From: an uncultured candidate division WWE3 bacterium
Lineage (GTDB): Bacteria > Patescibacteriota > WWE3 > UBA101185 > UBA10185
Direction of reading: 5' to 3'
Length of the DNA stretch: 64,000 nt
Assembly (NCBI GenBank): GCA_903879985.1
Contig: CAIRNR010000007.1
Span: forward strand, 69,382 to 133,381
In this document: positions 16,468 through 17,210 of the stretch, one piece after another
How positions within the stretch are numbered: the stretch's first letter is position 1
Layout: every line of letters starts with the position of its first letter
Made by a program: the position numbers and the translations under genes
Notes under the pieces: model-generated
Database searches by the model: none
The model's input: only the letters and a program-made list of their open reading frames with translations
Told to the model about the DNA's origin: nothing

Positions 16468-16543
16468 GCCAGAGTAGCTCAGTTGGTAGAGCGCCGGTAT
16501 CGTAAACCGAAGGTCGTGAGTTCGATTCTCACCTCTGGCTCCA
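16468..16543 (+). tRNA. tRNA-Thr (anticodon CGU).
   Basis: Cloverleaf folded by hand: acceptor GCCAGAG/CTCTGGC; D arm GCTC-AGTTGGTA-GAGC; anticodon stem CCGGT/ACCGA (one C-A mismatch); loop AU-CGU-AA; T arm GTGAG-TTCGATT-CTCAC; discriminator T and an encoded CCA. Confidence 0.85.
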
Positions 16544-16915
16544 TAAATCTGCTAAAAGTTTTTTAGCCTGTGTTGCTTGTGAATTTGTAAGTTCTCCAAG
16601 CTTTGCCTCTAACCTATCTACGTCTACGGTACGTATATACCACAGCAATGCTAGGGAATCTTTATCAAGAGCACCCTTACGCTTGATGCGTAACTCATAT
16701 TTCGACTTTTTAACTTTTCTTGTAGTGAATGGACATATAGCCACAAGTCGTGGATCGATGTCATTAATATTTTCGTTAACAATAAATGCTGGACGATACT
16801 TTCCTATCTCAGAACCACGTGACGGATGAAAACGTACAAGGAATATTTCACCGAATTTGTATGCGACATTACTTACGTTTTTTATCATTTCTTTCCTCTT
16901 CCTCCAAATAATCAA
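16529..16915 (-). CDS. Type II toxin, MazF/PemK family mRNA interferase.
   Basis: GEIFLVRFHPSRGSEIGKYRPAFIV...ICPFTTRK...DSLALLWYIRTVD matches the MazF/PemK core (GDLIWVDFDPTKGSEQAGHRPAVVL...CVPCTT). The likely true start is the internal Met near 16888 (MIKNV...). Its 3' end overlaps the tRNA-Thr 3' end on the opposite strand. Confidence 0.8.
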   Translation of the reverse strand: MIIWRKRKEMIKNVSNVAYKFGEIFLVRFHPSRGSEIGKYRPAFIVNENINDIDPRLVAICPFTTRKVKKSKYELRIKRKGALDKDSLALLWYIRTVDVDRLEAKLGELTNSQATQAKKLLADLWSQR

Positions 16916-17210
16916 GCATTCTATCTAAATCGTACTGTTCTTCTAAAGCTAATTCTTCCATGTCAGGATCAAATGCATATCTTTTTTTAACAAGAAGTGC
17001 TTCTAATACCAACTGAGTAAGTAACTTACTTCTATCTATATTTGGAAATTCTTTGTCTAGTTCCTCAACAACAACTTTTGGCATAACAACCTGTAATCTT
17101 TTGTCTGACTTTATATCGCCATAGGCATACGCAATTGAGATATCTTTGAGTAAGTAATAGGTTTTATCTAATGTGTATTCTTTCTTCTTCATGTGTACAT
17201 TTATACACAC
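16869..17210 (-). CDS. Putative cognate antitoxin (MazE-position protein with an acidic C-terminus).
   Basis: Sits immediately upstream of the MazF-like gene and overlaps it. Small, with an acidic tail (EELALEEQYDLDRMLDYLEEEE). Likely start at MKKKEY (~17192). Confidence 0.5.
   Translation of the reverse strand: MCINVHMKKKEYTLDKTYYLLKDISIAYAYGDIKSDKRLQVVMPKVVVEELDKEFPNIDRSKLLTQLVLEALLVKKRYAFDPDMEELALEEQYDLDRMLDYLEEEERNDKKRK

Follow-up and report, generated by a model that had tools for sequence, protein, structure and literature searches.

A predicted MazEF-like toxin-antitoxin pair abutting tRNA-Thr(CGU) at a recurrently occupied site in a candidate division WWE3 bacterium

Results

The locus studied here lies in a stretch of 64,000 nucleotides from an uncultured candidate division WWE3 bacterium (assembly GCA_903879985.1, contig CAIRNR010000007.1, positions 69,382 to 133,381), hereafter called the window. 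Two small genes on the minus strand, directly 3' of a plus-strand tRNA-Thr gene with the anticodon CGU, form a predicted type II toxin-antitoxin (TA) pair, in which the gene of a MazF/PemK toxin ends inside the tRNA gene and the gene of the antitoxin precedes it (Table 1). An earlier note on this DNA had placed the end of the toxin gene within the last ~15 nt of tRNA-Thr(CGU) on the opposite strand, and direct reading of the sequence confirms this.

Table 1. Features of the tRNA-Thr(CGU)-galU region in the window and of the corresponding site in related genomes (loci designated L).
Feature	Position	Strand	Evidence or remark
MazF/PemK toxin gene, 119 aa + stop	ATG 16888 to stop TGA 16531-16529	minus	PF02452
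Antitoxin gene, 107 aa + stop	ATG 17192 to stop 16871-16869	minus	upstream of the toxin gene
tRNA-Thr (anticodon CGU)	16468-16543	plus	intact; ARAGORN; Rfam RF00005 tRNA model, 67.7 bits, E = 1e-13
Antisense overlap of toxin 3' end and tRNA, 15 nt	16529-16543	opposite strands	direct sequence reading
Candidate TA promoter	17192-17228	minus	-35 TTTACA 17228-17223; 17-nt spacer; -10 TATAAA 17205-17200; 7 nt to ATG 17192
Inverted repeat TGTGTA-N6-TACACA	17209-17204 and 17197-17192	minus	over the -10 box and the start; spacer TAAATG
Whole interval from tRNA-Thr to galU, window	1101 nt		TA pair and 83-aa minus-strand membrane open reading frame (ORF)
tRNA-Thr to galU, L012, L014, L015, L016, L017	~370 nt		promoter, 71-72-aa membrane ORF, terminator; no TA pair
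Insert in L018, ~415 bp	L018 4218-4640		one Xre-type helix-turn-helix gene (PF01381, E = 2e-17); starts ~7 nt after CCA
Insert in L025, ~1.87 kb	L025 592-2470		130-aa ORF and radical-SAM gene; starts right after CCAT
tRNA-Thr(CGU) of relatives	L012 5557-5632; L014 5507-5582; L018 4143-4217		
Intrinsic terminator of the upstream 83-aa ORF	17226-17270 (stem 17270-17236 and T-run)	minus	terminator scan
Predicted membrane protein, 83 aa	17289-17540	minus	lineage-specific; occupies the place of the relatives' unrelated plus-strand 71-72-aa membrane ORF
galU-like UTP-glucose-1-phosphate uridylyltransferase gene	17645-18541	plus	PF00483; tblastx synteny from 17633 on
G+C-rich structured leader, 143 nt	16325-16467	plus	between a TATAAT box (16315-16320) and the tRNA; context, outside the TA module

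On the minus strand the overlap reads TGG AGC CAG AGG TGA and encodes W116-S-Q-R-stop of the toxin. The last codons of the toxin gene are the reverse complement of the CCA, the discriminator, the 3' strand of the acceptor stem and the edge of the T stem of the tRNA, whose CCA is genome-encoded. The overlap is read directly off the letters and is no statistical signal. Four further metagenome contigs from this strain carry the TA pair and the tRNA in the same arrangement, at 99.9-100% identity; since it recurs there, an assembly accident is excluded. Many more contigs are indexed with the exact toxin sequence.

The toxin had been described in the earlier note as a clear MazF/PemK-fold protein, and a profile search bore this out: residues 11-113 matched positions 1-106 of the 109 positions of the PemK_toxin profile (PF02452) with an E-value of 1.8e-18 and 67.1 bits, above the cut-off of 23.1 bits. 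Matches to solved MazF structures were obtained with the Staphylococcus aureus protein (2mf2/4mzm, E = 2e-10) and with Bacillus subtilis EndoA (4mdx/1ne8, E = 1e-7). In the alignment with 2mf2/4mzm, GSEIGKYRPAF of the toxin lies opposite GSEQGGVRPVV, and the threonine of FTTR opposite that of ITGR; the arginine of KYRPAF and the threonine of FTTR, which align with their counterparts in both the S. aureus and the B. subtilis enzyme, are what we take, from published MazF work, to be the catalytic residues. The protein is predicted to be an endoribonuclease of the MazF type. Its identity to plasmid-borne or solved MazF proteins is no more than ~30-38%; the search of plasmid and phage records yielded distant MazF matches alone (at most 38% identity), and a word-indexed protein search with the toxin returned nothing besides its own 99% variant.

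The genes are laid out as in type II TA operons, with a small gene directly upstream of the toxin gene, on the same strand and overlapping it. The 3' end of the antitoxin gene overlaps the start of the toxin gene by 20 nt, and a GGAGG Shine-Dalgarno sequence stands ahead of the toxin ATG; the same pairing occurs in the homologous cassette L023 described below. As a single sequence, the antitoxin gave no match in Pfam, NCBIfam, PADLOC or PDB and none in plasmid or phage records, and no defence-system model of PADLOC fits either protein of the pair. When 1.84 billion representatives were searched exhaustively with HMMER, the antitoxin family came to only 29 clusters (at 50% identity), whose members are ~100-125 aa long and align over their full length. 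The consensus of the 24-sequence family alignment (A3) is D.RVQVKMP..VV.ELD..FP..DRS.LLTQLA...LRF.DRP.L......EQ..LD.M..YLEERD. The antitoxin is predicted to consist of an N-terminal helix, a core resembling the ribbon-helix-helix (RHH) fold (RLQVVMPKVVVEELDKEFPNIDRSKLLTQLVLEALL) and a long acidic C-terminal helix.

An AlphaFold2 model of the antitoxin built on the A3 alignment reached a predicted local distance difference test score (pLDDT) of 84 and contained helices at residues 10-24, 39-48, 54-71 and 76-106. The extended segment 31-38, followed by the helices 39-48 and 54-71, is RHH-like; the model built on the single sequence was poor (pLDDT 57). The family profile matched, with residues 30-73 of the antitoxin core, the RHH domain of HicB (6g1n, E = 0.0027), and it matched that of EndoAI (4me7_E, E = 0.24), both weakly, and both matches fall on the motif RVQVKMP..ELD..RS..L. 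The same motif was aligned, with an E-value of 0.033, when the antitoxin was compared pairwise with an approximate EndoAI sequence. Two of the 24 family members touch RHH_1 and four touch HicB_lk_antitox (PF15919), all below threshold. A Foldseek search of the monomer model against PDB gave no meaningful match, which is to be expected because the model is a monomer of an intertwined dimer fold. The antitoxin stands outside every curated MazE family (AbrB-type MazE, RHH_1 and others), and the profile matches and the model suggest that it is probably of the RHH type, from a small undescribed family.

A single locus with a homologous cassette, L023 (Joint Genome Institute (JGI) contig Ga0210057_1003433), was recovered using the two-sequence antitoxin alignment A5. 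Its antitoxin is 55% identical to that of the window and its MazF is 52% identical over residues 11-116, and the two L023 genes overlap too. The cassette sits between a flavodoxin gene and an NDH-2-like gene, and no tRNA was found on the 8-kb L023 locus. Homology between the two toxins extends to W116 (F111 in L023), the codon of which is the antisense of the CCA; beyond this residue the L023 toxin has six further C-terminal residues, and the window toxin has S-Q-R-stop from the tRNA. Because the homology runs to W116, the junction between the cassette and the tRNA can be placed within a few bases of the CCA end. The portable unit begins with the -35 box, ends with the toxin gene and measures ~0.69 kb, and both cassettes have no spare DNA at one junction. 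At L023, the flavodoxin ORF (3517-3978) ends on a TAA inside the spacer of the cassette promoter, an arrangement that mirrors the ending of the window toxin in the tRNA.

Upstream of the antitoxin gene, an inverted repeat overlies the -10 box of the candidate promoter and the start, and its right arm ends on the A of the antitoxin start codon. The L023 promoter reads TTGACA-N17-TACAAT-7 nt-ATG (L023 3965-4003) and carries the repeat TGTGTA-N6-TACACA at 3984-4001, with arms identical to those of the window and CAATCA as the spacer. This likeness points to a conserved TA promoter with an overlapping operator, from which the antitoxin mRNA would be leaderless or nearly so. Several other gene calls of the antitoxin family start with 'MC[IT]..[HC]M', which looks like the promoter and start DNA read in frame. 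The terminator scan also returned the minus-strand terminator that, according to the earlier note, separates the TA pair from the next gene; it is real and serves the 83-aa membrane ORF, outside the TA operon, with its T-run abutting or overlapping the TA -35 box. No canonical terminator was detected by the scan on either strand between the tRNA and the toxin coding region, the sole plus-strand terminator-like site being a weak one at 16677-16693, within the toxin gene.

The closest relatives found encode a GalU 76-77% identical to that of the window and constitute one clade (87-99% mutual GalU identity), with the window outside it. The names borne by homologues of GalU and of the ABC transporter suggest that the window comes from a Microgenomates/Woesebacteria-like member of the Patescibacteria. 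These closest relatives too carry tRNA-Thr(CGU) just upstream of galU on the same strand. galU is the first gene of a block syntenic with the window and thus the right anchor of a variable site, collinearity covering window positions 17633-24550 (galU, a Big-domain protein, Wzy_C, a flippase, a hypothetical protein, GH18 and Ddl). The earlier note had proposed to compare the locus with related genomes, and the comparison showed that the TA pair is absent from the syntenic tRNA-Thr(CGU)-galU locus of L012, L014, L015, L016 and L017. Two further relatives carry other inserts at this place. In L018, the small membrane ORF and galU follow unchanged after the insert; in L025, the insert ends just before the -35 region of the small ORF. 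Since the L025 tRNA is identical to that of L012 and L016 and its flanks hardly differ from those of the empty-site genomes, the L025 insertion must be recent. Viperin was considered for the L025 radical-SAM protein and rejected, as the pVip models match it through the generic radical-SAM core only. Because unrelated small inserts begin 1-7 nt after the same tRNA in two relatives, the bases just after tRNA-Thr(CGU) are a recurrent insertion hot spot, with at least three different cargoes including the TA pair.

The earlier note had interpreted the overlap as the footprint of site-specific integration in which the inserted DNA rebuilt the tRNA terminus, and had suggested looking downstream for a direct repeat of part of the tRNA 3' end. 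Neither the last 24 nor the last 14 nt of the tRNA recur in the 64-kb window, even with 2-3 mismatches allowed, and a repeat finder run on the window returned nothing relevant to the tRNA 3' end. When the last 45 nt were aligned by Smith-Waterman, on both strands, with 16544-17660, 16544-30000 and 1-16400, the scores lay at the shuffled mean, so that the downstream repeat found no support. Likewise, the inserts of L018 and L025 have no tRNA-derived repeat at their far ends, and at L025 a distal repeat (attR) should still show because that event was recent. Exact-pattern scans revealed no tRNA 3' end in viral contigs and no tRNA core in JGI metagenome contigs.

Precomputed Pfam assignments record no integrase, recombinase or transposase domain within ±10 kb. 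No integrase domain was found in 20 further mid-sized ORFs of the window, a few of which have no Pfam match and which are otherwise core genes (ftsZ, ftsA, ftsQ, murG, ftsW, mraY, murA, uvrC), and no mobility gene is present in the L018 or L025 inserts. The G+C content of the TA pair is 0.30-0.36 as compared to ~0.35 in the flanks, that is, native and not atypical. Some short sequences had been entertained as traces of insertion and were rejected: the repeats at the insert ends ('CACAG' in L018; ATCTGCTAA, common to the window and L025) are 5-11 nt long and within chance, as are the GCTAAAA-type hairpins found at either end of the cassette in the window.

The window tRNA-Thr(CGU) is 66-72% identical to its positional counterparts in the relatives, which are 93-100% identical among themselves. 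In the acceptor, anticodon and T stems the differences fall on both strands, as compensatory pairs. In the comparison with the relatives' tRNA both halves differ, and no chimera of a native 5' half and a foreign 3' half was seen; the tRNA gene of the window might have been replaced. The divergence of the tRNA is about twice that expected from GalU (77% vs 87-99%).

Taken together, the TA pair has in common with tRNA islands its location 3' of an intact tRNA and its absence from the orthologous locus of relatives, albeit distant ones by GalU, and lacks the distal direct repeat, an integrase and an atypical composition. With a tRNA that is not chimeric and an L023 cassette that has no tRNA beside it, site-specific integration rebuilding the tRNA terminus finds no support in the sequence.

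Discussion

We favor, with moderate confidence, the explanation that the TA pair is a lineage-specific type II operon of the MazEF kind, acquired as a cassette at the tRNA-Thr(CGU)/galU insertion hot spot. In such an operon, the promoter, with its -10 box and start under TGTGTA-N6-TACACA, would drive a probably leaderless antitoxin mRNA, and translation of the toxin would be coupled to that of the antitoxin through the 20-nt overlap. By analogy with known type II systems, an antitoxin dimer or an antitoxin-toxin complex may bind the inverted repeat and repress the operon, while the acidic C-terminal helix of the antitoxin, as in known MazEF, would block the RNA-binding groove of MazF. Loss of a labile antitoxin would leave MazF free to cleave single-stranded RNA and cause growth arrest, and addiction, stress or abortive infection are conceivable roles. 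At the tight junction the toxin would have lost its own last codons and come to end on a stop that the antisense of the tRNA acceptor stem provides. Read-through to the first in-frame stop after this junction is the simplest account of the 15-nt overlap.

As to the route of entry, illegitimate insertion followed by exchange through flanking homology is most likely, ahead of site-specific recombination targeted to the tRNA. The suggestion in the earlier note that the pair is a remnant or cargo of an integrated element holds in part: an acquired cargo at a tRNA-adjacent hot spot is plausible, and of an integrase-mediated entry there is no trace. The TA pair is ordinary accessory-gene biology, and nothing shows delivery by an integrase. 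Several observations weigh against this explanation. With the window on one side and a single clade on the other, a gain by the window lineage is formally as parsimonious as a loss in the ancestor of the relatives. The tRNA has a non-syntenic left flank and is itself divergent, and the pair may have come with a larger rearrangement. The RHH assignment of the antitoxin relies on weak profile matches, the monomer fold search being uninformative, and a generic promoter scan did not return the TA promoter, which was found by eye and by its conservation in one homologous locus.

That the TA pair is instead the last cargo of a tyrosine-integrase element in the 3' end of tRNA-Thr, whose integrase and distal attachment site were later deleted, appears unlikely to us. 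Foreign DNA that starts exactly at the tRNA 3' end has the geometry expected of attL, the pair is absent from relatives in which the site is reused by other inserts, and tRNA loci are classic integration hot spots, accounting for 18 of 41 in Escherichia coli, where some occupancies come without an identifiable mobile element (Hochhauser et al., 2023, PMC10121019). Against this reading, repeats of the tRNA's last 14-45 nt do not rise above the shuffled background in 64 kb, neither the recent L025 insert nor that of L018 ends on an attR, no integrase was found, the tRNA is not a chimera of a native 5' and a foreign 3' part, and the L023 cassette does not sit at a tRNA. The absence of an integrase and of attachment sites would fit a process that inserts tiny self-promoted cassettes (MazEF, Xre, the radical-SAM pair) after the CCA independently of both, an undescribed route that we regard as a rather improbable possibility; if it were true, the undescribed antitoxin family and the leaderless promoter-operator would be part of that portable unit.

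The polarity of the event bears on a further alternative, in which an ancestral TA pair was lost by deletion in the ancestor of the relatives, the tight overlap reflecting compaction in a streamlined Patescibacteria genome. The genomes compared do not polarize gain and loss, as more distant ones (L020, L021, L024) have no tRNA-galU linkage, and the native composition of the pair and a tRNA-galU spacer that differs as a whole, beyond one insert, are in keeping with an old resident. Yet we favor gain over loss, because the site gains cargo, the different inserts in close relatives being cases in point, because the cassette family occurs elsewhere in an unrelated context, and because the toxin C-terminus, in which the native six-residue tail seen in L023 is replaced by tRNA-antisense codons, looks like a product of the junction; ancestry with deletion is accordingly rather improbable. 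We consider it very improbable that the overlap is itself functional, with the 3' trailer of the pre-tRNA being antisense to the toxin mRNA, or the 3' end of the toxin mRNA being antisense to tRNA-Thr, as an additional layer of RNA control. Such a function could draw on the missing canonical terminator between tRNA and toxin and on an overlap that spans the CCA and the acceptor strand, but the L023 cassette has no tRNA neighbor, the 15 nt are explained by read-through to a stop, and conservation lends no support. Acquisition of a MazEF-like cassette at the hot spot thus remains our preferred explanation.

Among known systems, the MazEF modules of B. subtilis and S. aureus (EndoAI-EndoA; 4ME7, 4MDX, 4MZM) are similar in the MazF fold, in the aligned arginine and threonine and in an upstream overlapping antitoxin, the core of which appears to align with the RHH domain of EndoAI and to be followed by an acidic helical C-terminal part. 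In contrast to these modules, the window antitoxin falls outside the described MazE/RHH families and possesses an additional conserved helix at its N-terminus (residues 10-24), the toxin shares ~30-38% identity with solved or plasmid MazF, and the host belongs to the Patescibacteria. The C-terminal RHH domain of HicB (6G1N) is the best profile match to the antitoxin core; the partner here, however, is MazF and not HicA, the N-terminal domain of HicB is missing, and the similarity is limited to the DNA-binding motif.

The insertion site itself is reminiscent of the tRNA-adjacent hot spots of E. coli and of the core defence hot spots of Pseudomonas aeruginosa, which are also cited in PMC10121019: a fixed site by a tRNA and conserved genes at which small cargo, TA-like and regulator genes among it, varies from strain to strain. 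Unlike in those Proteobacteria, the inserts in these Patescibacteria are 0.4-1.9 kb long, begin 0-7 nt from the CCA and show no integrase and no duplication of an attachment site.

Integrase-mediated islands in tRNA genes (Williams, 2002, NAR 30:866, as cited in PMC10121019) share with our locus an element 3' of an intact tRNA and foreign DNA from the tRNA 3' end onwards, and differ from it in the distal tRNA 3' repeat and the integrase, both of which are absent here. The locus cautions against taking the overlap of a gene with a tRNA 3' end by itself as evidence of integrase-mediated integration. An antitoxin family that partners MazF and has no curated model, together with its conserved promoter-operator, should be useful for the annotation of TA systems in Patescibacteria. 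The small reused insertion site after a tRNA documents, in a poorly studied group, cargo turnover between near-identical genomes without hallmarks of mobility. If a specific mechanism independent of attachment sites were true, it would be of wider interest for the spread of minimal defence and TA cassettes.

Other features of the locus

The 83-aa membrane ORF between the TA pair and galU shows no similarity to the relatives' 71-72-aa membrane ORF. On the other side of the module, the leader 5' of the tRNA has a G+C content of 55%, as compared to ~35% around it, and a stable predicted fold (-47 kcal/mol, z = -2.4); it has no match in Rfam and is probably co-transcribed with the tRNA as a long 5' leader. 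In the relatives the promoter lies ~10 nt from the tRNA, without such a leader. Partial copies of the tRNA 5' end occur in the leader: TCGCCAGAG at 16340 and 16466, GCCAGAGTA at 16421 and 16468, and GTAGCTC at 16410 and 16474. GCCAGAG occurs three times in 130 nt of the leader region, whereas 2.6 occurrences would be expected over both strands of the entire window. Whether the leader is a decayed tRNA or a miniature mobile element was considered, and both readings were rejected, as the leader is a single copy and has no terminal inverted repeats, and its local alignment to the tRNA is not significant by itself.

Left of the tRNA, ~12 kb of the window (4607-16246) have no counterpart beside the relatives' tRNA, so that the tRNA marks a larger synteny breakpoint. 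This part of the window contains GT2 and GT4 glycosyltransferases, several ORFs without a Pfam match, a CarbopepD_reg_2 protein and, as the left neighbor, an ABC transporter, for which the search of genome contigs returned distant matches only. Its closest homologues (64-49% identical; L011, L008, L009) are non-syntenic and have no adjoining tRNA-Thr. On that side the relatives have PolX, LemA, NUDIX, LysM and two more tRNAs. Genes turn over throughout the small tRNA cluster of these genomes. The interval between their tRNA-Gly(CCC) and tRNA-Thr(CGU) is also variable and holds a 119-aa ORF and an EamA fragment in L012 (4163-5556), a 363-aa and a 122-aa ORF in L014 (3752-5506) and a DUF5680 protein in L018 (3390-4142).

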